Assembly: GCA_036172245.1 (NCBI GenBank)
Contig: JAYWIR010000046.1
Coordinates: 248,001 to 312,000 of the forward strand
Length of the DNA stretch: 64,000 nucleotides
Reading direction: 5' to 3'
Source of the DNA: Raillietiella orientalis
Lineage: Eukaryota
Numbering within the stretch: position 1 is the stretch's first letter; the number at the start of each line of letters is the position of its first letter. The notes beneath the pieces were generated by a model. The model was given only the letters and a program-made list of their open reading frames with translations, made no database searches and was not told the origin of the DNA. The position numbers were made by a program, and so were the translations under genes. Positions 8,676-45,511 of this stretch are shown here, piece after piece.

Positions 8676-9920
8676 GACCCTCACTAAATGAGGAAAAGTC
8701 CTTCAGTTTCTCAATTGAAACAAATTGAAGATCGTGAATGTATCCGTATTTCAAAAATTTTATTCTTGAGCGGTTGGTGAATGAAAATCTACCTAAATGA
8801 GCTTCGACAATCTTCATAGTGGTCTCGACGCCAAAAAGTTGCACAAAAGACAGCAAAGGCAAGCGCCATAATGTGTATCTTTTGTATGTCTGTTCTTGGA
8901 CGATATGTGACATGAGTTGAGGTGGAGGCGATCAAGAAAATACCTGGAAGCCTCGTCTGATTTTCAGCGTGCGCCGCACCAAACGGCTTGGTTGGTAAAG
9001 AAAATAAGAAATAAAAGGCGCACGTGTGGCAACAGACGCGAACGCATTCCTGCCGGGTTCCTTCGAGATTATATCAATGCTTCTCCTACAATAAATCGAC
9101 TTCGATGAATACTTGCATGATGCTCGACATCACAAAAAAAACATCGAAGAATGACTTATCAATGTGAAATTTTTGTTGTATAATGCATTTTAATGATCCT
9201 TAAAGAAATCAATGGAATCTCTGTACCATCTACAACCCACTATTTAAAACAATAAACAATCCAACTCACCATAATCATGAAGACGTGACCTAAACATTGA
9301 AAATCATAAATCAGTTTCGCAGTTTCATTTGAAAACTTTAATTTCCATTTTCTAGAGATACTTCCCTTACTACAGTCGGCAAGAGCGAACCTTCGGATCA
9401 AAAACACTTCTAATCCCTCTGGAGTGGAAGGTGAACTTCGTCTTCGGCATTGAGAGGCAATCGTTGAAACCGATTCTGGTCATCAACCAGTCAACAAATC
9501 AGCGACTCTTTCATCAGCAACAGAACGCCTTGGATGCCATCCCTCATTGCTGCCGTGAGTTTCCACAAAACCATCGGTCAGGAACAGAATAACGCCAGAG
9601 GCTTCTCAAACGGTGGAAGGAAAAGACAAGATGCAGACTCCTGACCCACTTCAACATCTCAGCTTACAAGACCTGCCATCGAGGTGCAGGGGAGATTCCG
9701 GAATGCAAATATCTTCCACAGATTTGGAAGCCAGTTTCCTGCGGGAAACCAAAGTAATGCTCCAGGAGAGGCATACTCTACCCCGCTCAGCGTCTCTGTG
9801 AGGAACTCCACCCCCTACACGTAGGCGCAAGCGGGCGCCCAGGAAACCTGGAAAGCACCTCTTCTTCTACGTGGAAAGAACCTCCTCTCGTACTGTTCTT
9901 ATGCGAACACTTCCTAGGCT

Positions 9921-10040
9921 CGACGAAGACCGCAGCTAACTTCGCGACGCAATGTGAATTGCAGGGCACATTGAGCATCGACACGTCGAACCAAATGGCT
10001 GCCTCGAATTCCTGCGAGGCCACGTCTGTCTGAGGGTCGA
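9921..10040 (+). pseudogene. 5'-truncated 5.8S rRNA copy
   Basis: Matches conserved 5.8S motifs CGAnGAAGAnCGCAGC, ATGTGAATTGCAG, ACATTGAnCATCGACA and 3' GTCTGAGGGTCG; no 18S or 28S adjacent. Confidence 0.9.
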
Positions 10041-10350
10041 AAGAACCTTTCCGCGAAGCGTCCGGAGAAGCGGAGGCTCGCGCCGAGCGCGACCCGCTCC
10101 GCAGCCGTCCGCGCACCCGTCGACTCGGCCGCACCTTCGGGAGCTCGCCAAGGAACCGCATCGCCCGCCTCAGCGCGGAGCGCCTCCTTTCCGGCGTTTC
10201 CGCGCGCGGCAGCGCGGGTGCGATTGCGCCCCTCGCGGAAGGCTTCCCGAACGGTTGGTCCGTCCGGCGACACGGTGCGGCGGAACTTCCCTCGAGCGTC
10301 GAGCACGCTGTACTCTCCTGGACGCGCCCGTTCGCAGCACGCATTCTCGA

Positions 10351-11694
10351 TTTTCACCCGGATTTCGCCGGGGCGTTTATTGGAAAATAAACTTTTACAA
10401 AGACGTGCGGTGGCTGGACCATTGCTCCAGCCACGCACGAAGAAACACAGAGCCTGCCGGGTCACCGGTTCGCAGACCGGTACGGTCCACCACGGCAGCA
10501 GGGGGAAGGGGGGAAAACAAAAAACAAAACAAAAAAGAAAAGAAAAGTTGGGAGGGTAAGGGAAGGGATCACAGTTGCTGGTGGGGCCGTTGCATCCTTT
10601 GCAGGATGCCGGCAAGCTCCTTCTGTATTCCTGGATCCAGGTGGGGCCATCGGGACGCCCTCCTCAGGAACTGGGAGGCTTGCTGGATGGCACTCTGATC
10701 GCGTTGTCCTCCCGTAGCCTTGCTCCAAGCGGTGACGATCCCGCGTAGGCAGCACAAAGCTGCTAACGAGGCCGCTGGCCGAAGGGCGTCGGCAACGAAG
10801 AGGGCTTTCAGTGCGTCCCTGGGGTTGCCGCAGGGGATTCCGATGGCCGCGGCAAAGCGAAACCAAAGGGGCCGAAGGGCAACACAATCCACTAGCAGGT
10901 GGGGGAGGGACTCCCGTTCCCCACACCTGACGCAATTGGGGTCCACCGCTCCCCAGGTCCAGTGGTGTCGGCGGGCGTTGCAGGGGAGTCCCCAGTGCTG
11001 CAACAGGAGAGCCGACTCCTGCCATTTTAAGGGGAGGGCGGAAGTGTTCATGAGCACCGGGGGCCACTTCAGATGTTCAATGGGAACATCGAGCAGCGCG
11101 CCCCAGCGCAGAAGTCCATTGGGAGGCGTACTCGGGGTCGCAGCGTCTGTTAACTGGCCCGTCTTCCACTCTCCTATCTTCTCCTTTCCGGAGATTGTTA
11201 CTGTAACCACCCACTTCGCCGCAACATCGCTGTCCAGATCTTCCATCAGGGAGGGCAGCGCAGCAGCGAGGGGGGTTCTTCCTGCCCACGCTCTCTTCTT
11301 TGGATCCTCCAGGATCTCGCGGAGCGTGCAACTTCTGTAACCCCCAAACAGGAACCTTCGTTCCTGTTGGGAGCGTTGCATGCCGAACTGTCCCCACGTT
11401 CGAACGGTTTCCTGCAACCAGGCACTACCGTTAAACGGGCGACAGGTGAGCAATCCTGGGTTTTTCCGATACAGCGCAGCCACCCTCCGTAGCTGGAGTC
11501 CGCATCGGTTGACGCGGCGACGGAGTGCAAGAAACGACGTCAGTCCCGTCTTGCCGGTGGCTTGCTGGAGAAGGAGACGTGCAGGGACGCACCAACAGGT
11601 GCACCACAACTCTGGAACGAGTGCCGAGAAGCGGAACTGGAGCTGAAGCTCCAGCCGCTCCAGCGTCAGGAGGCCCAGACCACCATCCCGACAA
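10351..11694 (-). mobile_element. 5'-truncated family-A LINE inserted in the ITS2-like spacer
   Basis: 15-bp TSD AGCACGCATTCTCGA at 10336-10350 and 11695-11709; uninterrupted ORF2 C-terminus (GGLGLLTLERLELQLQFR...CVRCGERESLPHLLVDC); family-A 3' end. Confidence 0.92.
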
Positions 11695-12485
11695 AGCACG
11701 CATTCTCGAGAGGGGGCGGCGGCGTCGCCTCCCGTGAACGGAAAAGTGATCCCGATCCGCGAAGCCGCGCAAAAAAAAAAAAAAAACACTTCCTAGGCTG
11801 AGGCTGAGGAACGCCCTTGGTCCAGCACATCGTCGACGGAGTGGGGCATTCCTAGTGACTGTAGATGAGGAGAAGGGGGAGCGAACGGATCGCAACAAAA
11901 ATGAGGAAAGGAGGGCGAAGACAAGGAGAGGCAAAAGGAGGCGGTAGGGAGCTCGAGGGAACCGGGAGGATGGGGCGCGGCATAAAGGGAGAAAAGGAGA
12001 TGAGGACGACAAACAGGTGGCAGGATCTGAAGACAACTGAGGAGTGGTAGCAAGCAAGAAAGAAACACACTGATCAAAAAAAAAAAAAAGGGTGGATGGA
12101 CGGAATTGACATTCAAGTGAGGAGTGCCAAGGGTAGGAGAGAGATTTGTAAACCGGTCACGCCGGCACGTCTGTTAAACACCAGTTAGGACCACCGTTCC
12201 TAACCGAGATGCAACGAAAAAGAAACGAATCCGCTAGCACGCGGGCCGGGCTAAAGGAAGTTCGGAACGGGGCGGGGGATTTTTTTTTTTTGAAGCAACA
12301 AAGTTGTATTTTTGGTCAGGCAGCTCGTCGACTCGTGACCGTGTCGTTGGCTCATCATCGTATGGGGACATCTCCGTGTCTTCGCCACACCGCCGTGTCC
12401 TTCCTTGCCTGACCGGCATGCAGTCGGCTGATCATCACGTCGGTGCTTCATCATAGGACATTCTGCTTAGAGCCCGGTCGTTGAC

Positions 12486-14800
12486 CAATCGTCGTGTCGC
12501 CGGCTCATCACCGTGCCGATGGACGGTCGTCGTGTCGCTGATGCGTGTTCAGTCAGGTCTCCGCCTCATCTTGTTGTCTTTGGCTGATCATCCTATTCGG
12601 ATGACTCGATGGGGATAGGGACACAAAAAGACAGTTAGTTGGGGCAGGGAACTTTGGGATAGTTCCGGGAGGCACTGGTTTAACACACTCACACCGGAGA
12701 AATTCGCAGCGAACGGGGATGGAGGATAAAACAAAAACATACAAACCAACAAAAATAAATGAAATCAATCAATCAATCGAGGGTGGGAGGTGGCTAAGTT
12801 CACCGGGGTCTGCCGTTCTTTACACTCCATCTGCCGCTGGATGCTGACGATCTCCTCTCTTGCTCGCTCTTCCAGGTGCTGCCACCTTGGAGCTGTCCTC
12901 ATGTAAGAAGCTGCGTCACAACGGACCACTTTTCGCTTCCCTCTCGTCGCGAAAACGTAGCGGGCTTTGACGATGGCGCGAGTGCAACAGATCGTTGCGA
13001 CTATCACGCCAACCGAAAGTCCGTTTCCCATGAAGTAACGGCGAAGCACGTCGTTGGCAGCGCCTCCCTGTAACGAAACAGCTGGAACCAGCCTGAGTCA
13101 CACAGTTAGTTGAGCTCACCGAATTCGAGCAAGAGGTGCGGGAACGACTCGATCGTCCCGTGCCTAGAGCAGTTCGGAGAGACAACTCCCTCGGAAACGA
13201 TGTTACGCCGCTGATTACAGTAGAAACCCCAGTGTAACAACAACAGCACATCTTGTTTCCATCTCAAGGAGAATACAGAGCTAGCCAGGCAGTGGGTGGG
13301 ACCACTATCTCTTCGAGGGGCACACTTAATACGTCGCTCCATCGAAGGAGTCCCTTCGCCCGATCGGAAGGAGTGGCGGCATGCATCAGCTCCTTCGTCC
13401 GCAGCCGCCAAGGAGCTTGGTCTCCCCTACGATGGTGCAGGAGATCTTCCACCCAGCTGGTAGTCTACTGTCATTGTTTGCTCTGAGGTCACATAGAGCT
13501 GCGGCGAGGGGTATGGTGGCAAGACGATCCCATTTCTTCTTGTCCTGCATGATGTCTTCCAGAGGATGACTCAGGAAGAATCGCAGGCCTCGAAGATCTG
13601 CCAGGCGCATCCTTTCGGAAGCTGTCCATAACACAACCGACTCCTGCCGCCCTGCATTACTGTTTATAGGGCGACAAATGATCCAACATTGAGCTTCCAG
13701 TAGTGAGGACAGTCGCGGGAAGCCAAATCCTTTCCTGGTGTGCCGAAACTCAGGCAGCAACGAAAGGAGTCCTTCGCTGCCAGTGCAGCGCGGAAGAATA
13801 AGGTGCGCAGGAAGGCACCATGGAGTACATCAGAGTTTGGCACATAGTGCCAGATTTCGAAACTGCAACTGCAATTCGATATTGTTCATCGTCAGGATGC
13901 CTAAAATCGCATCCTGACGTTTCAATGGGGTTCTCGGTTTTTCGCTCACCATCGGATCCTCTGACGTGCCCTCCGCAGACTTGAATGCTGTTGGGAAACG
14001 GTGTGGAACTGCGCGGAATGCACGAGCTGCTCTTGAAACTTCTCTGCCGAAGGGCGTCACCATTCCATTCTGGGAACGTGCGGCTCGACACTCTTCCTCT
14101 CATCCACTTCCTAACCCTCTAGTTTGAACGAAGCATCCTCCCACATCTGCGTTGTCTTCGTCTGCGAAAGCCGGCGAAAGCTGCAGGCAAGGGGTGACAA
14201 AGCGCGAGTCCGCATCCAAGGAATGCGTCGGTGACCTACTGAAGCGGCAGACGTGCGATTTTCACTTGCCATCTTCGAGCGGATGATGCTTTGGTTGCTC
14301 TGAGGTTTCTTCCCAGCATACAGACCATAGGAGCAGTCTCTCACTTCCAAAAACCCTGAAGATCAAGTATATCTTCGGCTCGGTTCCTTCTGAGTTCACC
14401 CTCTGTGGAGGAGAGACTGTACCTAAGGAGATCGACGCTATCGTTTCTCTCCCAACAAGAACAGACTTGTCATGCTACTCCTTAAGACAGGCCGTCTTAA
14501 GGAGTTCGTAGTACGGTGAGGCCCACCGTACTACGAACCCACACTGAAGGGTGGTGAGCGTTTTTCTCTGCCTACGAGGAAACATTGGATGCATTCTAAA
14601 AAAAACGTTCGAGAGGAAGATTATCAGGTAAGGGAGCTTTCTCCAGTATTGCATCCTCCTTCGAGTTGCGTATGGAATGAGGAACAGGAGTACAATCCCT
14701 GATGCGGCCTCTCCTCGTAAGAATTCCCATCTCATAAAAGCAACTCTCGTGGACTGACCTTTGTTTAGGTGCACATGGGAATGCAGACCGGACCTTCATA
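12486..14800 (-). mobile_element. Decayed family-A-related LINE; 12486-~14500 is duplicated at 42298-~44320
   Basis: LRWKQDVLLLLHWGFYCNQRR...PNCSRHGTIESFPHLLLE and IELQLQFRNLA motifs; near-identical ORF translations in both copies. Confidence 0.8.
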
Positions 14801-26685: not shown

Positions 26686-28627
26686 CTCCTTGCTTTTCAG
26701 CACCTACTTCGAGCTGGTGCTGAGGGCATACAGGGAGACTCTTGGTCGCCTGCCGCGCGTGTGCCCAGGTACACCAGCCGTGGCGTCTTATGCGGACGAT
26801 CTTTTGCTGCTGCTCCCCATGTCCACCCCGGCGTCGGCGGTCGAAAACTTTTTCGAGCTGCTGCGTCGCGGGACAGGGCTGGAGGTGAACAGAGCGAAGT
26901 CGTCCGTGGTTGCAGCTGGTTCATCGCAGGCAGGGCAGCCGGATTGGTCTAGCTTGGGGATCCCCACGGTACGGTACCTTAAGTACCTCGGTGTGCCCTT
27001 GGGGGACTACTCCCCAGCGGAACAATGGTCTTGCTGCCTCCAAAAGGCCGAGAGAGCGATCGGCCCGTTCCTGGATGGCAAGTTCTTCTTGCCGGAACGG
27101 GCCGTGGTGTGGAACACGTTTGTGGCCCCCCTTTTTCGCCCCTTGCTTTTTGTTTGCCCTCCACCCTGCGGTGTCAGAAAACGGACGAAGGACCTCCTCA
27201 GAATCGCCCTTTGGGGCAGAGGTAGGCCCCGAGTCCGTTTGAAGGACTTATGTGCCCCTGGTCGCGATGGAGGCCTCGGCCTCCTCACGCTGGAGCGGCT
27301 GGAACTGCAGCTGCAGTTCAGGACTCTAGCCCTAGTAGCGAAGCTATGGAGCACCAGCTGGTGCGAGCCTGCACGACGCCTGGTTCAGCGAGCTAGCGGC
27401 TGCGCGGGACTGTCTACTTCCTAGAGTACCGCAAACGCCGGTACCTGTTCCACTGCGGACTGGCACTTCGGCGAGTGGCGAAGCTGACCAGAACGAACAC
27501 CTGGATCTCCTGTCGGCACGCGAACGGTACTTCCTGGTTGCAGGAAAGCCTTCGCACGTAGGCCCAGATCGAGGAAGCGAGCCCGGAGTTGCGGCAGCGA
27601 ATGCTGCTCTCCTATCACAAGAGCCGCTCGCTGCAGGACATCATTGTGCAGCCCACCTCGAGCGCATGGGCTGAGAGGACCTCCCTTGTCGCGGCTCTGT
27701 CCCACCTCAGGGAGCACCTGGGCAGTAGCCATCCGGCGAAATGGGAAGTCCGGTGTAGTATCTCTGGAAGAGAGAGAGAGCAAGGTGGTTGGACCACGGG
27801 CCAGTTGACAGACGCTGCGACCCCAAGTGCCCCACCAAAGGGACTATTGCTCTGGGGCAAGCTGCTGAGCATCCTCATGGATGTACTCGAGTGGCCCCCG
27901 GTGCTGAAGACTACCCGGGCCCTCCCTCTGAAGTGGCAGGAGTCGGCGTTCCTGGTGTTGCACTGGGGACTCCCCAGCAACGCCCGCCGTTCGCACTGGA
28001 CGAGGGGGGCTGTGGACCCAAATTGTGTCAGGTGCGGGGAACGGGAAACCCTCCCGCACCTGCTTCTTGACTGTGTTGCCCTCCGGCCTCTGTGGTTGCG
28101 TTTCGCAACGGCCCTAGGAGCACCCACGATCAACCGTAGAGACGTTCTGACGCGCCTCTTTGTGCGTGACTCCCTTCGGCCTGCCGCAGCCCTTGCAGCC
28201 CTCTGTTGCCTACGAGGGATTGTGGCGGCCTGGAGCACCGCCACTGGTGGACTGAACGACAGGGACATCATCTGCTCCGCCCTGCGTTTCCTAAGGACGG
28301 CAGCCAGATGGTCCCATTTGGGGCATATGCGGACCGAACTTGCCGGCATCCTGGAAAGGATGTAGAGGACGACTCCAGCGGAATGTGATCCCTTCCCCAA
28401 CTCTCCCCTGCTTTTGTAAATAGCGTTTTCTTTTTGTTTTTATTTGTCCTTTTCCCCCCTGCTGCCAAGTCGAACTCGCCAGCCTGCGTGCTTGCTACTC
28501 GGCAATTTCAAACTCTTTACTAGAACTTTTTTTAGGACGCTGCAGGGGCAATAGCCCTACACTTGCTTGTTTGCTTTTACAAAAAAATAAACGCCCCGGC
28601 GCACCCGGGTGTAAAAAAAAAAAAAAA
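26686..28627 (+). mobile_element. 5'-truncated family-A LINE (RT core to 3' end)
   Basis: 11-bp TSD CACCGAGCTGT at 26675-26685 and 28628-28638; SYADDLL, KYLGV and CVRCGERETLPHLLLDC motifs; poly(A) tail; frameshift near 27420. Confidence 0.92.
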
Positions 28628-29822: not shown

Positions 29823-31415
29823 GGGAATTGACAATTAAACACCAAAGTGGTGAAAATTACTTTACGTAGAGTTGTGCAACTTTCTCCTTGCTGCAGCACG
29901 CTTGCAATATTGGAATGCACTGCTGCTCGTTAGTGCAGTAGCATTGGATATTGTCTCACTGATTTGAAAGTCATGACCTTTACCTAATTTGGCATCAGAG
30001 AAAAGGCAGAGTGTGTGTACTCTGCTGCCTTCTTATCTCTGCTATGTGCGTGGATACTTTTTTGTCAAATAAAAGTACCGGCATGGCTTCATTTTCAAGC
30101 TTCCGAAAGCCCAAAATGAATGCAGCGATAGTGTGAATTTGTCAAGTTTGGTCTTCTAAATTCGAAGGGAGCATTCCAGCAAAAGAAAACCTTAGTTGAG
30201 AAAACACCATAAGAGTTTGCAAAGAAACAGCAAATCTATTCGTCGTGTTGCAACAACACTGCTCTTCTTGTGAAACTGGCATGAAATGTTCCTTGTAGAG
30301 GTTGCGCAGTTTCCTTGAGATGAATGAAAGTGCATTGGTTTGAATTCGCAGGAACCTCAAAGTGGTCTTCACGTGTTCGATCTCCTCCTTGATGACTGTT
30401 TGCTGACCTTTTATTTCTTATTGAATATCAATCTAAGCTACATCCATTGGATGTTTGGTTGCTGGAGTCACCGGACCTTCAAATCCTTTCACCTCGGATA
30501 ACGAAATAGGAACTCCTGGTTATCCACAAACCAAGTCTGGATTCTGAATTGTGAATAAAAAATCTCTTGCGTTGGTTGGTTGTGCATTTCTATGAATTTT
30601 CTATTTCCTAGCATTGAGGGTCCTGGGTGCTACTGAGAATTTCCTTGCATTGAACACTCTGGACTGCTGAATGAAGATAAATAATAAAATCCTCTTTGTA
30701 TCAGGAAATCCCTGCCTTATTTTATGAAGAAACTTATCAAGGGAAGCAAAAAAGAAACTTCGGAGTCATTTTGTTACGATCTGGTTCATTCTTTTGCCAT
30801 GCAGAGGAGTACTACCAGTGTGCAACATTGAAGATGTACACGTGGATACGAGCTTACAAAGCTATAGTGACCTTAAAAATTTCTACTCAACGAACCGTTT
30901 TCTGATGTTTCTGGAGGCGATCTTGGAAAATTGTGCGTATCTTGAGAACTTCATGAAATCGAATCAATTCCCTACGTTTCGGGAAGCTTCCCATTCGTTA
31001 CATTTCTCTGAACTGTCTTCTCCGATTCTGGAAAACGAGAGAAGTCATTCGAGAAAGACAACCCCTTCTCGATGAGTCTTCTGATGCTGGAAAGAAATGC
31101 GCTTGGGAATGTTTTGAAACAAGTGAGCACAACTGTTTACACCTTACTATGCGAAAAACAAAATGAGGGCCGTTTTCTTATTGGTGTGTCGAGGAGATCG
31201 TCTGCAGAACTTGACACATGTATATGCAGATTGCTTTCATCTCCACGATGCCTGTTGCCGCAAATTGCTGTTCGAAGCGAAGAGGTTACTGTCGATACAT
31301 ATTAACTCATACTTACCTGGCCGTGAGCTTAATTGTGCTCAAGACAAGCGATGTTGACCACGATACCAGACGAGTAGTTTGAGGGAGCGTCGTGTTGGCC
31401 TGCAACTACCATCAC
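29823..31415. repeat. Near-identical inverted copy of 1538-3130
   Basis: Reverse-complement match with only isolated differences. Confidence 0.95.
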
Positions 31416-32800: not shown

Positions 32801-33815
32801 AAAGTCGCTCAGCAGCACGCCAATGTAGTTGAAGTACCTGTCCGTGGGGATACGCAGGCGGATCCAGTTGGACTGCCCCTCCCAAGTAGAGCCAACCATG
32901 ACCTGAAGTGGCCCCCAGATTTTATTGGATCGAGGATCCTCCCCCTGAAGTGGCAGGAGTCGGCGCTTCTGCTGTTGCATTGGGGTCTACCCTGCAACGC
33001 ACGCCGCTACCACTGGACTAGGGGTCGAGTGAATCCCTCCTGCATCAGGTGTGGGGAGCGGGAATCGCTCCCCCACCTCCTTGTTGATTGTGCTGCCCTC
33101 CGACCCCTGTGGGAACGTCTTGGTACCTCCCTACGGCTGCAGGAGGGCAGTCAGCCCAGAGACGTATTTCGGCTTCTTTTCGTGCGGGATGCCCTGCGAC
33201 CAGCCGCAGCCCTGGCGGCACTCTGCTGCATCCGAGGGATCGTGACGAGCTGGAGCGATTTCAGAAGACCGAGCCACGAGAGGGGTGCCGTCGAACTCGC
33301 AGTCCGCTACCTGCGGCTTGCAACCAGATGGCCCCCCCTGGGAATCATTCGGACGGACCTCGAGGGCATCCTGGAAAGGATGGACCCTCCTCCCAGTGGA
33401 CCGTGATCCCTTTCCCGCCCTCCAACTTCTTTTTGTTTTTCTGTTCTTATTTTTTTTTTTTTTTTTTTCCCCCACCCCCTTCCGCTGCCTAGGAGAGTCG
33501 CGCCGGTCTGCGTACCGGCGACCCGGCAGGTCCTGTTGTGTTGGCCGCAGTGGGGCCTAGTACCACGAACTGTAAAGAGAGTTTACAATAAACGCCCTGG
33601 CGTGACCGGGTGGCAACGTAGAGCCAACCGGTACAACGGTGGATTTCGCCCTGTTGACGCTCACACCTACTCCCTGACGAATGAGCTCGAAGAAATCATC
33701 GAGACTGGACGCCGGAGTGGACATGGGCAACAGGAGAAGTAGGTCGTCAGCATAGGCGGACATGGCCGGCGTTCCCGGGCAGGAGCTCGGCAGGTTGGCC
33801 AGCGTCAGCCTGTCG
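32800..33815 (-). mobile_element. Family-A RT fragment, split by a younger family-A insertion
   Basis: AYADDLLLLLPMSTPA...NRAKSTVVPVGST continues across the insertion as WEGQSNWIRLRIPTDRYFNYIGV. Confidence 0.85.
32898..33617 (+). mobile_element. 5'-truncated family-A LINE
   Basis: 12-bp TSD GTAGAGCCAACC at 32886-32897 and 33618-33629; HWGLPCNARR...CIRCGERESLPHLLVDC; family-A 3' UTR. Confidence 0.9.
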
Positions 33816-34871
33816 GCCAGACGTGTTTGATCGTAGCTCCAGCGTGTAGAAGTTCAAGTAGTGTTGGAAAATTTTCTTGCAACGACTTGTGATAATTTAC
33901 CGTTTTCTAATACCTATACACGTACTCTAGCTGTGTGCGGAAAATTAGTGTGGTAAGTTAGTTGGTGTTGCCCATATACGGATTATCCTCTGTCTCCCGC
34001 AGCTGCTATAGTTTAACTAGAGAGCTGTTGGTTGGCCAAAGTAAGAGTTTTTGCCCTGTCCCCATCAAGACATTGCCTAGGTTCAATTAACTTCAGTTTT
34101 TCACACATTTTTATAACAGTTGATGGTTTAAAAAAAATAAAATACAATTGTGAGTGATACGTGGGATTTCCTTTCACAATAGTTGCCATGGCATTGCAAT
34201 TGTTGATATTTTCTAAGATGATGGCGCGTCCACGTGGCATGCTTGTACCAGACCGATACCGCGCGCTAGGCACGTGATACCGTGCACGTATTCCGCTTAT
34301 ACACTGCTACTGTATACAAGAGTATTCACGCCCTGTGTCGCGTATTCGGAAAACTTTTTTTTTACCATGTCAATGGTGCACGCGATCTTATCTGTACTTC
34401 TAGAGGTTTCGCAGTAATTATTAACGATGTCCACTGACTTTTTATCCGATATACGTTTGTTTGCTTCATGACAGGTTCAGATATAGAAAATTTAAAACCG
34501 TCTCCCAAGCTCACTTTCTTAGACTCCGACAGATGTGTTTCCCTCCCACGGCCATGCCCATGTCCAGTTGAGGGATGCAAGCTTGATTCCTCAGCTGAAG
34601 AAATGTATAATCGCTCCAGAGCACCATATCTCACGCATCCATGGTGTAACACCCCAAATTACTTTATACTTTTGTAACGAATGCAACTTTACTGCCGACC
34701 TTCTGAAATATTCTCCTGCCTCTCAGAAGTGCACTCAATCCACTCGAACACTGACACGTCCGCTTCGCTTGAAAAAGTTTCCCTGTGCGTTCTATCCCTC
34801 TAGCTTCGACCACAAGGGTTTCCGCGTACAATCACATGCGATGCATATACGCCTGAAAAATCAAAGCAACA

Positions 34872-35011
34872 AACCTTGCTCACGGGCAGTATCATAGGCG
34901 AGGAAGGCGACTGAGCCGTGATTATTGCTAATTGAAAACTTTACCCAATACCCCGCCAAGGCAGTGAGTAACATCACTGCCGCGGCAATTTTTGCGTGCC
35001 CCGAGAGGGCA
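34872..35011 (+). ncRNA. U4: Full-length U4 snRNA sequence (retroposed, fused to LINE)
   Basis: GATTATTGCTAATTGAAAACTTTACCCAATACCCCGCC is nearly identical to the metazoan U4 central region as I recall it; 5' stem-loop with k-turn (GGC-GAG-GA-AG-GCGA-CT-GA-GCC); 3' stem GGCAGTGA/TCACTGCC; Sm site AATTTTTG 34987-34994; terminal hairpin TGCCC-CGAGA-GGGCA. Confidence 0.92.
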
Positions 35012-35137
35012 AGTGTTGTGAAAAGAACAGTGAGTGCGCAACCGAGGACTTTCCCCAGCAGCAGCAGCGGCCAGAGGGAGTCCACGGTGGAGGAGTCGCG
35101 ACCCTCCCCGGCGGCGGTGCAGCAGCACCCCGCCAAA

Positions 35138-36842
35138 ATGCAGGAGATGCGGTGGATGACCAGCACGGAGCCCATGGAGGTAGGGCAATCCTGTGTTTCT
35201 GGCGCCACATCGGCGGACGTAAAGAAGGCCACAGTGGTGGCAGCGAAGGCGGCGGCGGCGGCAGCGTCCCCGGCGACGGCGATCGCCGGAGCAACGACAG
35301 GGCCCGTAGGTCCTACCGTTGCTAGTGACACGACGCCATCTTGCGCGGCAGCTGCGACCGTGGGGCGGCCGCCGGCGGCGACTTTCTCTTATGCGGCGGT
35401 GGCGGCTGGGACGGCAACAACCCAGCCGCAGAGAAAATTTGGGAAGCCCGAGTCCGGGCCGATTAGGGACGTTGACGAGCCCATCGTCAAGTTGGGCCCA
35501 AACGTAAAGACGGTCACGTTCAGGACTGGCTTAATAAGGATGCACAACATCAGGGAAGTCTACCTGGCGCTTTACAAGCAACAGGTGGACTTCGACAGAT
35601 TGCAAGCGATTGTGCCTGGTCCATCAGGCTTCACAGTCTATACAGATTGTGAAGAAATCCGACAATCGTTGATTGAAACTGAGATCGACATCCAAGGAAA
35701 AATGGTGTGTGGAGTCGGCGAAATGCCGTACACCACTCTATTTCTAAGCGGGCTCGGGCCGTTTATTACACAGAAGGCGGTGTAGAAACGCCTGTCGCAG
35801 TACGGCGAGGTACTGGACAGCAACTTCCATAACATCTCGGGGAAGATCTTTTCAAGGGGAAGCGACGGTGAAAATAAAGCTGCTGGAGGATGCCCAGATT
35901 CCTGGGACCATCCACTTCGAAAGTGTCGATCAGGGAGTCTCCGTCCGGTATAGGGCGCAGCCCGTTTTCTGCAACGGCTGCAAATCCTTCGGACACAGGC
36001 AGCGAGTCTGTCCGAAGTCGATGTGCTTCCGCTGTGGGAAGCAAGGCCACCAAGTGCGGGATTGCAGCATGCCGGAGGTATGCTCATTTTGCAAGGCCCC
36101 AGGGCACGCAAAATGGTGCTGCCCCGAGTTTGCCAATTACCGGACGATGAGGGGCCAGTCACCAGTTAGGGCGCGAGTGCTCGACGAGGTAATCAAGCCT
36201 CAAAGAGCACTGAAGCAGAGGAAGGCTAAGGAGGCCGCTCCGGTTTCCGAGGACGGCTTTACAACGGTGGGGAAGGGCGGCAAGAGGAGAATGCTCGTAA
36301 GGGAGCAAGAATCCTCCTCCTCTGCACAGCCCGAGCAGCAGGTTGGCGAACAGGCGGTGGTTGAGAAGCAGGTTGGCGAAGCGGAAGAAGAGCAGGTTGG
36401 CGTGAAGAAGGGTGTGCCGGAAGCTGAGGTGATGGAAATCGCCGAAGCCCTTCCGGCATCGCAGGAGGCGGTGCAGCTCACCGAGGAGGTGGTGAAGCTA
36501 GCAGAAGTTGTCCAGGGGGAAAAAATCGAGATGCAGCAGGAGCAACTCCTGACTCGCATCAACGACACCCAACAGGGGATTAACACCTTTGTAATTCCCG
36601 AAGAGCGCGAAAAGATCGAGAACCAGCTTTTCGAAGTGAAGGCGGCATACTGCGCGAAGGTCTCACTTGAAACACTTCCTCGCAAGGCGATCGCCAGGGC
36701 CGAAAGAGCAATAGAGGCGGATCCAGAGTCCACGGACCACACCGGCACGGAGAGCGATGCCGGGAGTGAGAAGCCAGCTTCCTCAACGGTGAGACGCGAA
36801 AGGTCTCCCCGCCAGAAGAAGCTGAGGAAAGGGAAGCATTAG
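35138..36842 (+). pseudogene. LINE ORF1 (gag-like, three CCHC zinc knuckles), disrupted
   Basis: CNGCKSFGHRQRVC, CFRCGKQGHQVRDC and CSFCKAPGHAKWCC; premature TAG 35783-35785 and a frameshift near 35850; start codon uncertain. Confidence 0.85.
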
Positions 36843-36857
36843 ACTTCGAACCCTTTC

Positions 36858-39800
36858 ATGTCCTCGTCGCTAGCGAACGCCAGGAGGCTAAACATCGCCT
36901 CCTGGAACATCAACGGATTGACAGACCAAGGCAAAAGGAAGACAATCTTCCGGACCATCGCAAGACAAGACGTAGTGTGCCTACAGGAAACCCACCGTCT
37001 CAGGCAGCAAAACACCCAGGAGATGGAACGCCGGTTCAACGGACAACTGTTTGTCAGCGAGGGACAAAGGAAGACCATGGGTGTGGCGATCCTCATCAAG
37101 AACGAGCTCGTCCACACCCTTCTGGAAACCTTCTGTCCACTCGCTGGAAGGATAATCGGCGTGCGACTGTCCTGGTCCGACAACGTTCACCTGTTTCTGG
37201 TGAACGTGTACGGACCGCATAAAAACAAGCATTGGTGCGCGGAGGCTCTCCACGAGGCACTCCGCCAACGTGTAGCACCGAAGGACATAGTCATCGTCGC
37301 GGGTGACCTGAACATTCAAGAACACATCAAGTACCGTCAAGATATCAGAGGAAGAGAGGCGTATCGACGGTTGTCCGACGACTTCGGAGTGGTGTGGCGA
37401 ACAGCCAGCCACAAACCGATCGATCACGTCCTCCATAGCGTGGAGATCGACAACCGAATCCTGGGTTTTCGCGACATTCCTCATCTGTTGTCCGATCACC
37501 CTTTGGTTCGTTCTCCCTCCGCACCGAAAATCCTCGACGGCGAAAGGCCACTATGGCGGCGCTCATCTGCATGCCCGCCTGGTTTGAGACGCTTCCCTGT
37601 CACCAGGAGGTGATCGAGGCGATTCTGCGGGACACCACCATCCGCAGAGTCGCCGACTGGGACAGCTTGAAGCATCGGATCCACTTGTTCTGCAACATGC
37701 AGTACTTTTGCAAGCGACTGAGGCAAGAAGCGTACCAAGAGCTCAACATCCAAGACCGCTCCCTCTCCAAGTACTACGATCAGTACGAGAGTCGGTACGT
37801 CTTCAATAATGTGAAAGGGGAGGTCGGCGTGCTGGAAAAGAAGAATCTGGCGACAGACATCTTCTGCATCCAGTACGGCGGCCAGAAGCGGCACACGTCG
37901 GAAGACATCGTGGGAGCATTCCATCAGCACTACGAAGAACGCTTCCGGCGGCAACACACGTGCAAGTCTAGGCAGAGAACTTTCCTGAGCTACCTCGAGA
38001 AGAGGACAAGCGATCTCCATAGAGACAAACTGGAGGAGAATTTCTCCGAAGATGAGGTGAAAACGGCTTTTGGGCAACTGCGGAAGGACGTGGCAGCGGG
38101 CCCTGATAGTGTACCCATCACGCACTATCAGCGGTACCTGCACGCCTACCTGCGCTTGTTCCATCAGCTCACCCTCTGCATCCGTGAAGAAGGAAGACTA
38201 CCTGAGTCCTTCTACGAGAGTAGGATGAGATTGTTGCCGAAAGGAGGGGACCTCACGCAGGTCGCTCAATGGAGGCCAATCTCCGTCCTGAACTCCGATG
38301 CCAAGTGGTTGGCGAAGATCTGGTCCAACCGCTTAGGCAAGGTCATGCCGAAGCTCATCTCTCCGGTCCAAACATGTGCGGTGCCCGGACGCCACATGTT
38401 GGACAATGTCAAGTGTGCCCAGGCCACCGTGGGACTCAGCCGGTACGTCGGCGAGGACCTGGTGCTGGTGTTTACTGACATGGAGAAGGCTTTCGACTCC
38501 ATCGACCATGGGATGCTGCTGAAGATTCTGGACAAGCTGGGCCTTCCAGAATACTTCAGCACCTTCGTGAGATTGGTACTCGAGAACCAGTACTGCCGAA
38601 TCAAGATCAACGGCGAAGATACGACAGCAATCAGGATGGAAAGAGGAGTCCGCCAGGGCGACTCGTTAAGTCCTATGCTGTTCGTTATTTACATGGAGGC
38701 GCTGTCCTCGTACATCGAGAAGAGTGGACACCTCCAAGGCATCCAGATCGACGACCAGCGGCTCACCCACCTGGCGTACGCTGATGACCTTCTCTTCTTC
38801 ATCAAAGGAGAACGAAATCAGCGTGTGTTCCTGGAAGTGGTGACGCTAATGGAAGAAGGATTAGGATTGAAGATCAACGCAAGGAAAAGTCAACTTTTGC
38901 CCGTCGGTATCCTGGACCTCTCCGTCCTCACGGGGAGAGGATTCCGAACGGTGGACACAGCCAAATACCTAGGAGTCTACATTGGCGACGGCCCTGCGTC
39001 GAAGCTTTTGTGGGATGAAACCCTGGGGAAAACGGCGAAAGAGGCAGCGAAGTACACCCGACAGGACCTTGGAATAAAACGCAAGGCCGACCTCTGGAAT
39101 GGAGTCCTTCCTAAGGTGCTCTTCGGGGCGGCCTTTGCGAGAGTGAAAAAGGACACCTCGAGGGAGCTGGAAAAACTGCAAAGGAAGACATTATGGGGCA
39201 AATATCGCCCAAGAGTTCTCTTGAAACCCCTATGTCGCCCCAAAGAAGAAGGTGGAACCGGGATGAAGTCGCATGCACACTCCATGGCAATCATGGACAC
39301 GCGACACATCCTGGATATCGCCGAACAATGGGACGACTGACCGTACGCGGCGCATAGGGCCTATTCGATGTTGCTTAACAACTCGAAAGGTCTGATGACT
39401 GCGCTGCTAGGCCGAGTAGGGAAGTGGATGACCATCGACCCGACCTGGAGAAGGAAACAACTGCTGGTACGAAAGTACAAGATCAAGATCGTGCCAAGAA
39501 GCAGGGAACTTTGGCAACAGGAGTCCATCGTCGTGATCCCTTGGATGCTTCCGGTCCCGGACGATACCCGAGGATGGATCTACCGGCGGCACAGAGTTAC
39601 TCTGCAACAAATCCAGGAATGGAGAAAAGGAGGCCACCTACATCAGGCTCGTATACTTCGGTATATCGAGAAGATGCTAGGTAGGTTCACCCACCGGACC
39701 CGCGAAGTGTGGATAAACCACGATGACTTTGCATGGTCCAGGGTAACCAAGACAAACCTCCGAAGAATGATAAAGGACAAAGATGAAGACACCAGTGCCC

Positions 39801-40372
39801 TCCAGGAAGAGGCCAATTGCTACGGAAGCAACAGGATCAACCTGTTGGCGATCGGCACGACCCTATGGAGGAGTGACCTTCCGCCGGACAGCCAGGACAA
39901 CCTCCTGATGTTCTATCACGGAGGAATCCTGAGCGGGTCCAGACTAAAGTATTTCACAAGGAGAAGAGGAGACGAAGACTGCCCAGCATGTGGAGACACG
40001 GATACCAGACTTCACATCCTGACGTGTCCCACATTGCTCCACGACTGGCTGATCCTTAAACGGATCATTGGACGCACCACCAGTTCCACGACGGAGATCA
40101 TCGCCGGGATGTTTCAGGGGGATGGTAATGTTCCCTGTTACAATCCCATCGTGAGGACGACCATTGCCCTCTTCATCACTGCCATTCTGGTGCGGTGGTG
40201 GAAGATGAGAAAAGCCAGGAGAGCCGCACCTCCGATGGAGATCCTGCAAGGACTCCTGAAGAAGGAAATCGGCATAAGAAATTGTGGAATACGAGCGGCC
40301 TGGACGTACAGATTCATCCTCAAGAGGATTGAAGACGACGCCCGGGACCAAACACCTGTATACCCACCCTAA
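36858..40372 (+). pseudogene. LINE ORF2: APE endonuclease + reverse transcriptase + C-terminal CCHC, disrupted
   Basis: SWNING, CLQETH, NVYGP, GDLN, IDH, SDH (EN); WRPISVLNSDAK, DMEKAFD, GVRQGDSLSP, AYADD, KYLG (RT); CPACGDTDTRLHILTC; frameshift near 37510 and in-frame TGA 39338-39340. Confidence 0.93.
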
Positions 40373-42297
40373 GTGCAGAACTTCAGTGAATCCCAAGGAC
40401 TTCCAGTGAATGCAGAATAAGTGATGTATTGTATGAATGTGACTGTAGTGTGAATGTTTTAAAAAAAAAAGAAAAATAAATTTACCCCACCCCTTGTGGG
40501 ACTTGGGGAAAATCAAAGCAACAAACCCCTCTCCCCATTTCGCACTTTTCGCCCTATCTCTACATGTAACCGTTTTGATGCGATAGCGACATCCGAACCC
40601 CCCGCACCTGTAGCCATAGAAACAGCGCATCCTATCCCTACAATAGCCTGTACGTCAACAGGATCACTACCTCCCATAGTTCCATCAAATTCATCTTCCT
40701 CCGAAGCCTTACAACAGCAAGCACAACCGATACATCCAACTCCCTTATACCCCTTGCACTCAACCAGCGAACCAGCACCCTATGTCTCCGCAGCACAACA
40801 CGTTCTGCCAAACACCCAACATACACTACACACGAGCACACACTCCATCCTTAGTTCTTACACCCCGATCCTCACGACCCTTCTCACACAATCGACGTCT
40901 AATGACACTTGGCAACGTACCCTGGATACCCTCAACGAAATTATGAATACCATAACTTCTACGTTCCACATACGCCCATTTAACCCTTCCACAAGGCCTA
41001 CATCCTATTCCAATGCCTTTCGCCTTACCTCACCGAAACCACTTCAATCTCTGTATCGGCGAAACCGAAAACGAGCCATTCGCACTCTTCTTCATCCGAA
41101 TCCCATTCAATTTAACGGCTGTAAATCCATGGTTCAAACTATTTTTAGTGAAAAGTCCTCAGCAAAGACAGTGAACGCGGACATACTCAAGGAAAGGCCT
41201 TTAATCCTGGCTTCTTCGGAAGTGAATTGTGCAAACATGACCCCTCAAGGCGTTCTGTTCACATTAAGGAACTCCCAACACACTACTCCAGGGAATGACA
41301 GATCCCGTACTCCATACTGCGCAAAGCAGACCGAGACGGATCTTGTCTTGCAGTCCTATACAATTCATGTGCCCGTCACTTGCGTATCCCTAACGATTGG
41401 AAAACATCACGCAGAGTCCTAATCCCTAAATCTGGCGCATCTGATCCGGCAGACGTAACGCAGTTGCGCACCATCGCAATCTCCAATACCATTAGCAAGC
41501 TATTCTGCAACATCCTTGCGAAAAGAATGCGCTCGTGGATCCTCAACAACGGAATCCTTGGACACCATCAAAAGGGATTTCTTATTTATGATGGCGCGTT
41601 GGAGCAAAACTCTGTCCTGACCACTGCACTTGAGCGCTCCCGAGTGCACCACCAACACATCGCCATTGCTTGCATAGACTTAAACCGACGCGTTTACCTG
41701 CATCACTCATCAGCTGATTCTAGACACGCTGACCGTGCTAGGGGCTGGTAGTCAGTTTCACGGAATCATTGCGGAAATGTATTCGGAATCTACGACAATG
41801 ATCGTGGCTTCGGACGAGCCCAATATCGTATCGTTCCGGAGTGCTCCGAGGATGTTCCCTAAGTGGGGTGTTATTTAACATCTCTCTAGAACCTTTTAAC
41901 AGAATTGTGAAACACCAACAGCCCTCTATTATTCCGCTTGCTTATGCAGACGATGTTGCGCTTATTGCTAGCTCGAGAAATGAGCTACAACTGGCCGTTA
42001 CCACACTCGCAGATTCAACCCGAGCTACAAACTCGCAAATAAATCCCAATAAGTGCGGCTCCTATCACTCGCACTTGTGGCGGGGAATCTACGTAAATTC
42101 CCCAATATCTGTGAACGGTGCAATAATTCCCTCCCTTTCCCTACAAGATACTTATAATTATCTAGGGAAACCGATTGGCTTCGATCCACTCATGTACGAC
42201 GGAAACGTAGATACCTTCACTGCCCATTTCAAAATCATTGCTGACTCCTCCTTAGCCCCATGGCAGAAACTGGACGCCATCAAATGCTTTCTCTTGC

Positions 42298-45000
42298 CCA
42301 ATCATCGTGTCGCCGGCTCATCACCGTGCCGATGGACGGTCGTCGTGTCGCTGATGCGTGTTCGGTCAGGTCTCCGCCTCATCTTGTTATCTTTGGCTGA
42401 TCATCCTGTTCGGGGGACTCGATGGGGATAGGGACACAAAAAGACAGTTAGTTGGGGCAGGGAACTTTGGGATAGTTCCGGGAGGCACTGGTTTAACACA
42501 CACCGGAGAAATTCGCAGCGAACGGGGATAAAGGATAAAACAAAAACATACAAACCAACAAAAATAAATGAAATCAATCAATCAATCGAGGGTGGGAGGT
42601 GGCTAAGTTCACCGGGGTCTGCCGTTCTTTACACTCCATCTGCCGCTGGATGCTGACGATCTCCTCTCTTGCTCGCTCTTCCAGGTGCTGCCACCTTGGA
42701 GCTGTCCTCATGTAAGAAGCTGCGTCACAACGGACCACTTTTCGCTTCCCTCTCGTCGCGAAAACGTAGCGGGCTTTGACGATGGCGCGAGTGCAACAGA
42801 TCGTTGCGACTATCACGCCAACCGAAAGTCCGTTTCGCATGAAGTAACGGCGAAGCACGTCGTTGGCAGCGCCTCCCTGTAACGAAACAGCTGGAACCAG
42901 CCTGAGTCACACAGTTAGTTGAGCTCACCGAATTCGAGCAAGAGGTGCGGGAACGACTCGATCGTCCCGTGCCTAGAGCAGTTCGGAGAGACAACTCCCT
43001 CGGAAACGATGTTACGCCGCTGATTACAGTAGAAACCCCAGTGTAACAACAACAGCACATCTTGTTTCCATCTCAAGGAGAATACAGAGCTAGCCAGGCA
43101 GTGGGTGGGACCACTATCTCTTCGAGGGGCACACTTAATACGTCGCTCCATCGAAGGAGTCCCTTCGCCCGATCGGAAGGAGTGGCGGCATGCATCAGCT
43201 CCTTCGTCCGCAGCCGCCAAGGAGCTTGGTCCCCCTACGATGGTGCAGGAGATCTTCCACCCAGCTGGTAGTCTACTGTCATTGTTTGCTCTGAGGTCAC
43301 ATAGAGCTGCGGCGAGGGGTATGGTGGCAAGACGATCCCATTTCTTCTTGTCCTGCATGATGTCTTCCAGAGGATGACTCAGGAAGAATCGCAGGCCTCG
43401 AAGATCTGCCAGGCGCATCCTTTCGGAAGCTGTCCATAACACAACCGACTCCTGCCGCCCTGCATTACTGTTTATAGGGCGACAAATGATCCAACATTGA
43501 GCTTCCAGTAGTGAGGACAGTCGCGGGAAGCCAAATCCTTTCCTGGTGTGCCGAAACTCAGGCAGCAACGAAAGGAGTCCTTCGCTGCCAGTGCAGCGCG
43601 GAAGAATAAGGTGCGCAGGAAGGCACCATGGAGTACATCAGAGTTTGGCACATAGTGCCAGATTTCGAAACTGCAACTGCAATTCGATATTGTTCATCGT
43701 CAGGATGCCTAAAATCGCATCCTGACGTTTCAATGGGGTTCTCGGTTTTTCGCTCACCATCGGATCCTCTGACGTGCCCTCCGCAGACTTGAATGCTGTT
43801 GGGAAACGGTGTGGAACTGCGCGGAATGCACGAGCTGCTCTTGAAACTTCTCTGCCGAAGGGCGTCACCATTCCATTCTGGGAACGTGCGGCTCGACACT
43901 TCCTCTCATCCACTTCCTAACCCTCTAGTTTGAACGAAGCATCCTCCCACATCTGCGTTGTCTTCGTCTGCGAAAGCCGGCGAAAGCTGCAGGCAAAGGG
44001 TGACAAAGCGCGAGTCCGCATCCAAGGAATGCGTCGGTGACCTACTGAAGCGGCAGACGTGCGATTTTCACTTGCCATCTTCGAGCGGATGATGCTTTGG
44101 TTGCTCTGAGGTTTCTTCCCAGCATACAGACCATAGGAGCAGTCTCTCACTTCCAAAAACCCTGAAGATCAAGTATATCTTCGGCTCGGTTCCTTCTGAG
44201 TTCACCCTCTGTGGAGGAGGAGAGACTGTACCATGCGAAGGCGTGGATCGCTGTCCCTACGTAGATCGACTCTATCGCTTCGCTCCCAACAGCAACAGAC
44301 TTGTCATGCTACTCCTTAAGACGGCCTCACCGTTCTACGAGCTCACACTGGGCGTTTTTTCTCTGCCGACGTGGAAGCCGTAGATGCATTCTGAAAACAA
44401 CGCGAGAGTGGAAGATTCTCAGGTAGGGGACCATCCACGAAGACCGGTTCCCTGCAACAGAGGTTCCTACTCTGGTCGTTCGGATATCAGAGCAGCTTCG
44501 CGCAGGCGCTGCGGGGGTTCGCAAACGCTTGGAGGGCAGAAAAATTCCCTTTTAGGATGCTGGTCGTTTTGAAGTCTTTGCGAATCCCTGTGGACGGTGC
44601 AACGCTTATAGACTGTCGGACAGTTAGACGGAGTGCATGTCACGTGCGAGTACTTGAGGGCATTTGCGCATCGCTCCGAAGTGCTTGGCAACCATCTGCA
44701 AGAAAATGGCGGCGACACTCTGACTTGTGGGAAAACGGATCCCATATTTACAACTGCTTGCGGAGACTGATCTTCACATTCCTTCACGGAAGAAATCCAA
44801 TGCGCCAGGGGAACTCCACCGCCGGACCAACCTGTGCGTGAATGCCACGGGGACAACTGCGATCGTAAGTACCTTCATCGTCAAATTGCGAGAATGGCGA
44901 GACGCGCTCGAGCGGTACCATGTCAAGGGCTTGTAGCCGCACTGCTAAAGCGCTGGAGGTTTCCCAACGAGGCTGCATTCCATCTGCGACGGAAAGTTTG
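42298..45000 (-). mobile_element. Decayed family-A-related LINE, direct duplicate of 12486-14500 with further RT remnants
   Basis: Near-identical sequence and ORFs to the 12.5-14.5 kb copy. Confidence 0.8.

Positions 45001-45176: not shown

Positions 45177-45511
<335 letters not shown>

Follow-up and report, generated by a model that had tools for sequence, protein, structure and literature searches.

Full-length U4 small nuclear RNA copy joined to a near-full-length L1-like retrotransposon within a single target-site duplication in Raillietiella orientalis

U4/L1 pairs are among the known human chimeras joining a small nuclear RNA (snRNA) to the long interspersed nuclear element (LINE) L1, and template switching is the usual model for the formation of such chimeras (Law & Burns, in the part available to us). 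In the U6/L1 chimeras described in that part, U6 is mostly full-length and in sense orientation, L1 is truncated, and the chimeras do not propagate further. snRNA-derived heads have also been described for crocodilian LINEs. According to the accessible part of Kojima (2015; PMC4494074), the family-level sequences of Tx1-2_Crp, Tx1-2B_Crp, and Tx1-4_AMi carry U1-derived heads and that of Tx1-11_Crp carries a U2 head. The same part indicates that internal promoters are unreported for snRNA genes and that Tx1 lineages target U2, U5, and 5S genes. No U4-headed LINE family was described in the literature searched. Here, we report the analysis of a locus of Raillietiella orientalis in which a full-length U4 copy abuts the 5' end of an L1-like LINE, both being enclosed in a single target-site duplication (TSD). 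The DNA that was analyzed, designated the window, consists of 64,000 nucleotides (assembly GCA_036172245.1, contig JAYWIR010000046.1, positions 248,001 to 312,000 of the forward strand), and all coordinates below refer to it. The novelty implied for this locus by a first-pass annotation, made from the letters alone, was overstated, since U4/L1 chimeras are known, though extremely rare (Doucet et al., 2015, as far as the text at hand extends), and U1- and U2-headed Tx1 families have been described (Kojima, 2015, PMC4494074, in the part cited above).

To qualify as U4, a sequence had to reach at least 46 bits, the gathering score of the Rfam model RF00015, across the full model. A search with cmscan returned a match to RF00015 at positions 34872-35010 of the plus strand with a score of 92.5 bits (E value of 1.8e-19), extending from position 1 to position 138 of the 138 positions of the model without truncation. 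A laxer scan of the whole window against Rfam (E ≤ 0.1) gave two matches only, U4 and a 5.8S rRNA. The alignment to the U4 model comprised the k-turn-type 5' stem-loop, the invariant central single-stranded region, and the 3' stem-loop, with AAUUUUUG as the Sm site. The terminal stem contains 5 bp and is closed by the pair T34997-A35011, which extends the U4 copy to 34872-35011. The first-pass annotation had named this very span and had proposed a comparison with the Rfam covariance model; the full-length match, at 92.5 versus 46 bits, and the closure of the stem at A35011 support both the identification and the limits. Model position 9, which is a highly conserved G, is a U in the copy at 34872-35011, a substitution that presumably affects pairing with U6. 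Because this highly conserved position differs, the U4 copy may already have drifted from a functional sequence. The locus does not combine an external snRNA promoter with intact U6 pairing, as a functional U4 gene would, and its upstream flank is a transposon open reading frame (ORF).

U4 and the LINE are flanked by a perfect 19-bp TSD, AAAATCAAAGCAACAAACC, present at 34857-34875 and 40509-40527. This is the longest exact match between the left and right flanks of the insert. Nine of the 10 isolated exact repeats of 19 to 24 nt in the window share their offsets with longer, diverged transposon repeats, and AAAATCAAAGCAACAAACC is the sole repeat with an independent offset (5652). The last four nucleotides of the left copy (AACC) count both as TSD and as positions 1-4 of U4, and the length of the duplication is therefore 15 to 19 bp. 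The host reading frame ends as ...RLKNQSNKP on the left of the insert and reads ENQSNKPLSPF... on its right, NQSNKP being encoded by both TSD copies. Since the offset of 5652 is 3 × 1884 and NQSNKP is found in both flanks, excision of the insert with one copy of the TSD restores a single open frame. Thus, U4 was inserted together with the LINE, as one piece, because one TSD encloses both and the host frame spans the empty site. The U4 copy has no promoter of its own, since its upstream flank is a continuous host ORF. Both the single 19-bp TSD and the arrival of U4 with the insertion, in the absence of an snRNA promoter, had been proposed in the first-pass annotation, and the exact repeat and the uninterrupted host frame bear these proposals out. 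U4 and the LINE are in sense orientation, directly abutting within one TSD, which is the organization of a small-RNA/LINE chimeric retrocopy. At the target, the nicked (bottom) strand reads GATTTT/TCAGG and is T-rich; L1 endonuclease sites are T-rich on the nicked strand.

The body of the LINE comprises two ORFs. Searches of Pfam detected zf-CCHC in the open frame at 35748-36842, Exo_endo_phos (1.1e-18) in 36843-37613, and RVT_1 (1.5e-32) in 37439-39340, and gave no match in the N-terminal part of ORF1 or in the C-terminal part of ORF2. In a search of the PDB, the reverse transcriptase (RT) was nearest to human L1 ORF2p (6.4e-45, versus 5.5e-25 for the best R2 protein). The element has an N-terminal apurinic/apyrimidinic endonuclease (APE), an RT nearest to L1 ORF2p, and a separate ORF1, as members of the L1 group do. 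The L1 part of the earlier designation 'L1/Tx1-like' is supported by this ranking of the RT (6.4e-45 for human L1 ORF2p and 5.5e-25 for R2), and a search of the Atlas with the RT returned generic RVT_1 clusters only, none with a Tx1 label. The best relatives of the RT in large protein collections displayed 32% identity among proteins of near length and 28% among longer proteins. Many of these relatives carry the Pfam domain zf-RVT, and the named ones are mostly plant L1-like or uncharacterized. Plant-type L1 carries zf-RVT. The inserted copy is disabled by frameshifts at two places, within 35748-35785 and within 37439-37613, and by a third lesion, an in-frame stop codon at 39338-39340.

The 5' part of the LINE was considered separately. 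The first ATG of ORF1 is located at 35138, one position before that given in the first-pass annotation (35139). The ORF1 frame is open from this ATG back into U4, over 42 GC-rich codons, which argue only weakly for coding, and this open frame had been considered as compatible with a slight truncation of the LINE at its 5' end. A related ORF1, located at 123-527 on the minus strand, matches residues 96-180 of this ORF1 as counted from M35138 (34% identity, E value of 2e-18). The shared block is preceded by 95 residues from the first Met in the U4-associated ORF1 and by about 21 residues in the relative. Since 95 residues precede the block here, there is no sign of a cut in the N-terminus of ORF1, and the open frame is a weak indication of 5' truncation. 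The best explanation of the sequence is that the LINE is complete or nearly complete, with both ORFs.

At the other end of the element, the last 34 nt (40475-40508) share 82% identity with the 3'-terminal stretch of a related LINE on the minus strand (25183-25150), and the likeness stops exactly at both ends. The stem of the inner hairpin is CCC/GGG in one tail and CCG/CGG in the other, both sides having changed with pairing kept. Neither tail, ending at 40508 and 25150, respectively, has a terminal poly(A). The 3' tail of the LINE is conserved and under constraint, and this suggests that the RT recognizes a specific 3' end of its own RNA. U4 would be acquired at the 5' end of the element because an RT starting on its own 3' tail meets U4 at the far end of the template.

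Other tails are present in the window. The 16-nt word AATAAACGCCCCGGCG occurs four times (none expected), at 506-521 (minus), 10366-10381 (minus), 28586-28601 (plus), and 33587-33602 (plus). It corresponds to the 3' end of a further L1-like family, which has a CCCGG/CCGGG hairpin there, and in the copy at 28586 it precedes a poly(A) stretch. The word was considered as a common LINE 5' leader motif and rejected as such. Because AATAAACGCCCCGGCG is the 3' terminus of another family, the neighbor at 123-527 does not inform on the usual length of leaders. At about 470-495 on the minus strand, the 3' terminus of that family lies within about 20 nt of the ORF1 start codon of a different LINE (123-527, minus). 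Either one LINE landed at the tail of the other, or the two form a chimera with the geometry of the U4-LINE pair; the rest of the element that carries this ORF1 extends beyond the window.

At the junction, U4|AGTGTTGTG, the LINE side begins 0 to 2 nt past the pair closing the 3' stem-loop of U4 (35011). The presence of the two parts and of the single TSD, the fact that both parts were inserted together, and the location of the junction at the terminal stem of U4 can be read directly from the DNA. The mechanism that we favor, which we regard as evenly balanced against all others taken together, is that, in the course of this insertion, the RT reached the 5' end of the LINE RNA and jumped from there to mature U4. 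According to this scheme, a chimeric cDNA of U4 and the LINE would have been inserted into the ORF of an R2-like element in one retrotransposition event. The LINE endonuclease would have nicked the bottom strand at GATTTT/TCAGG, and reverse transcription, primed at the structured 3' end of the LINE, would have proceeded to the 5' end of the LINE RNA. An end-to-end jump would then have brought the RT to the 3' terminus of a mature U4 snRNA, which it would have copied up to the first nucleotide. Joining of the cDNA end to the target via the 4-nt microhomology (AACC) would have generated the duplication of 15 to 19 bp. The U4 part would be a promoterless passenger, and the inserted copy would have decayed afterwards. 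We infer both the template jump itself and its timing, in this event instead of in an ancestor.

Several observations argue for a jump of this type. U4 is full-length and in sense orientation, its 3' end abuts the LINE, and its 5' end is the end of the insert. This 5' end is located at the TSD boundary with an overlap of 4 nt, as predicted by microhomology joining. A jump onto a processed snRNA fits the junction because the latter is located at the expected end of mature U4, with no evident gene flank between the two parts. The T-rich nick site, the L1-type RT, and the conserved 3' tail shared by two LINE families of the window are also in agreement with this mechanism.

Other observations weigh against it. 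The LINE is near full-length, whereas the L1 of human small-RNA/L1 chimeras is mostly 5'-truncated, and it is in 5' transductions from upstream promoters that a near-full-length L1 is typically found (Law & Burns, in the part available). U4/L1 chimeras are extremely rare in human, and 0 of the 32 analyzed U4 copies fall into the retrotransposon-associated class in Table 1 of Doucet et al. (2015), as we understand this table from the part of the article at hand. One copy was examined, and the description of the event as 'one-off' consequently rests on a single locus. The start of the LINE sequence at 35012 may differ from the 5' end proper to the family. Finally, a word resembling the 3' box of snRNA genes, GTTGTGAAAAGAACA, is present at 35015-35029 (plus), 4 nt past the U4 stem, with two mismatches to the vertebrate consensus. 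If real, this word would be a U4 gene flank, favoring read-through transcription over a jump onto mature U4. The window contains 130 comparable plus-strand matches, corresponding to a chance of about 4% per 20-nt span, a value that is uncorrected and was calculated post hoc.

The first alternative is that the locus belongs to a LINE lineage with a U4 head, in which a chimera formed earlier, by whatever route, served as the source and passed the head on to its descendants. We consider this to be unlikely. An origin by a jump and later inheritance are not mutually exclusive. Transcription of the members of such a lineage would depend on flanking promoters, as internal promoters are unreported for snRNA genes. 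The complete head occupies the very 5' end, and the LINE, which has both ORFs, is close to full length, as propagation requires. The U1- and U2-headed Tx1 families of crocodilians provide a precedent, but the same source indicates that an snRNA head supplies no known promoter (Kojima, 2015, PMC4494074, accessible part). An equally doubtful form of a propagating lineage would have its source at, or landing at, the 3' end of a U4 gene; transcription would be driven by the U4 promoter, and the Sm site and k-turn of the complete U4 in its transcripts could confer stability of the snRNP type or nuclear import on the LINE RNA.

Searches for additional copies bear on this alternative. No second U4 head, junction, or 126-nt leader (35012-35137) was found elsewhere in the 64-kb window, which argues against a lineage. 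The exact 27-nt junction word had no match in metagenome contigs, and a 35-nt word from the 3' half of U4 had none in genome contigs and none in viral contigs. The translated junction with the N-terminus of ORF1 (287 amino acids) gave no match at E ≤ 0.001 among 3829 candidates, and the 257-amino-acid stretch translated from position 35012 gave none in 1.84 billion representatives. We also analyzed 80 metagenome loci encoding distant relatives of the RT (333,390 nt), which were drawn from a 2-sequence alignment. U4-like sequences were detected in none of the 80 loci by blastn-short and nhmmer, and Rfam matches in none of the 20 loci chosen among them for having the most upstream sequence. The organism or the LINE family appears to be absent from the protein collection since the best relative of the RT is only 32% identical. 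Because the collections appear not to contain this organism, the lack of matches in these searches is weak evidence against a U4-headed lineage.

Somewhat less probable in our view is a 5' transduction by read-through, in which a source LINE would have come to lie directly downstream from a real U4 gene, either fortuitously or through a preference for this target, and been transcribed from the external U4 promoter, the resulting U4-LINE RNA then being retrotransposed into the present site. Position 1 of U4 lies at the TSD boundary, as in a transcript initiated at the U4 start site, and the LINE is near full-length, as it mostly is in 5'-transduced L1 chimeras (Law & Burns, same part). Elements of the Tx1 clade targeting U2, U5, and 5S genes do exist (Kojima, 2015, PMC4494074, accessible part). 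Such a source would need to be located almost precisely where U4 ends, since the LINE side begins 0 to 2 nt after the U4 terminal stem. The present target, CCTGA/AAAATC..., is located in a transposon ORF and has no likeness to the U4 3' end, and targeting of U4 is therefore unsupported at this locus. The weak 3'-box-like word at 35015-35029 is in favor of read-through, but the match is loose, lies nearer to the end of U4 than is usual, and rests on a vertebrate consensus.

Ligation of the 3' end of U4 to the 5' end of the LINE RNA, followed by single-pass reverse transcription, would lead to the same product geometry as a template jump, a full-length sense small RNA abutting a LINE. It is one of the two mechanisms named for U6/L1 (Law & Burns, same part). 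We consider it to be improbable here. A full-length capped LINE RNA has no 5'-OH end, and the ligation model relies on the 2',3'-cyclic phosphate end of U6. U4, a Pol II snRNA, lacks the U-tract end (Doucet et al., 2015, part at hand). Finally, two separate insertions or an assembly artefact mimicking one event are very improbable, given that the copies of the perfect 19-bp duplication directly border the insert, at the start of U4 and at the end of the LINE, that removal of the insert restores the host frame, and that no second pair of direct repeats was seen by eye around U4 alone or the LINE alone.

The insert interrupts an element whose two RT pieces matched R2-type proteins only in the PDB (3.9e-06 and 9.1e-05). 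The upstream flank had been annotated as the coding sequence of an element with a restriction-like endonuclease (RLE). The open host frame and the R2-like RT agree with the coding nature and, in part, with the type of this element, whereas no RLE domain was found in it; the host frame breaks after 42431, where an L1-like C-terminus begins on the minus strand. The host is best explained as an older R2-like element, judging from these similarities. A direct repeat of about 2.2 kb (42294-44430 and 12481-14635, about 95% identity) holds the minus-strand L1-like C-terminus, and its copy at 42294-44430 cuts off the R2-like element 3' of its RT. The features of the locus are collected in Table 1.

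Table 1. Coordinates of the features of the U4-LINE insert and of its host element in the window.
Feature	Position	Strand	Description
Host element ORF, left part	34523-34856	+	Degenerate C2H2-like finger; frame continues through the TSD
TSD, left copy	34857-34875	+	AAAATCAAAGCAACAAACC; last 4 nt overlap U4 positions 1-4
Full-length U4 snRNA copy	34872-35011	+	RF00015; k-turn-like 5' stem-loop, Sm site, 3' stem-loop; promoterless
Presumed LINE 5' untranslated region, 126 nt	35012-35137	+	Between U4 3' end and first ORF1 ATG; open in the ORF1 frame
LINE ORF1	35138-36842	+	Frameshift within 35748-35785; Ala-rich N-terminus; three CCHC knuckles at about 35970-36122
LINE ORF2	36858-40372	+	Starts at M36858; APE at about 36897-37499; RT at about 38240-38980; TAA at 40370-40372
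LINE 3' untranslated region, 136 nt	40373-40508	+	A-rich tract, then hairpin-bearing tail ...AATAAATTTACCCCACCCCTTGTGGGACTTGGGG; without terminal poly(A)
TSD, right copy	40509-40527	+	Exact match to the left copy
Host element ORF, right part	40528-42431	+	In frame with the left part; RT pieces at 41299-41751 and 41802-42431

Four additional features of the window were recorded. The lone 5.8S rRNA match is located at 9895-10039 (plus; 73.9 bits, model positions 1-154), with no 18S or 28S rRNA in the window. The 9-nt word AAAGAACCT is present at 9875-9883 and at 10040-10048, directly after the 5.8S match, and is followed by about 310 GC-rich nucleotides. The match may be either a tailless retrocopy with a 9-bp TSD or a stray fragment of the 5.8S rRNA gene with its internal transcribed spacers (ITS1-5.8S-ITS2). 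An open stretch at 45177-45410 (plus) matches the adenylate/guanylate cyclase catalytic domain (PF00211, 3.1e-14) and is probably an exon of a cellular gene beside the transposon nest. An inverted pair of 1416 nt, 30000-31415 (plus) and 1538-2953 (minus), is 99.9% identical, whereas the other repeat pairs of the window are far more diverged; it reflects either very recent copying of a transposon or a duplication introduced by the assembly. No tRNA gene was found within the window.

The analysis confirms the observation; the U4/LINE chimera is unusually complete and comes from a lineage that had not been sampled. It provides a clean, fully delimited association between a Pol II snRNA and a near-full-length autonomous LINE beyond the mammalian L1 system, in an organism for which the databases searched contained no close relative, and indicates that the end-to-end capture of an snRNA is not restricted to U6 or to truncated L1. 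If the junction were found in multiple copies, U4 would be added to the few snRNAs that head autonomous LINEs (U1 and U2, in crocodilian Tx1), and the locus would offer a test case for the transcription of heads devoid of internal promoters. A propagating lineage, if true, would be the first U4-headed autonomous LINE family and the counterpart of the U1- and U2-headed Tx1 families. As a single locus, the insert is an instructive anecdote, since one copy cannot tell whether a family was founded.

The locus shares with the human snRNA/L1 chimeras of the U6/L1 type a full-length sense snRNA abutting the 5' end of an L1-type element, a single TSD around both parts, and a T-rich nick site. It differs from them in several respects. 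The L1 of U6/L1 chimeras is mostly strongly 5'-truncated, whereas the LINE is near full-length here, with both ORFs. The RNA is U4, which is extremely rare in such chimeras (Doucet et al., 2015, part at hand), the LINE has a structured tail that lacks a terminal poly(A), and its RT is only about 30% identical to any protein found. The crocodilian Tx1-Mar families and SINEU resemble the locus in that an autonomous LINE, typed here as L1-like by its RT, carries an snRNA-derived 5' head without a known internal promoter. In contrast, the Tx1-Mar families are multi-copy, have U1 or U2 heads, and insert preferentially into a Mariner transposon, and one U4-headed copy was seen here. The LINEs that target snRNA genes (Keno and Utopia in U2, and the U5-targeting Tx1) are likewise physically joined to spliceosomal snRNA sequence. 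However, these elements lie inside snRNA genes, with gene sequence on both sides, whereas both flanks are transposon ORF here; because U4 is located inside the TSD and both flanks are host ORF, the insert does not belong with the elements that target snRNA genes. As in L1 5' transductions, in which a near-full-length L1 carries sequence of an upstream exon or promoter, additional sense sequence is present 5' of a near-full-length LINE within one TSD. In the insert of R. orientalis, this additional sequence ends at a small-RNA 3' end of the mature type instead of at a splice donor or in an arbitrary flank.

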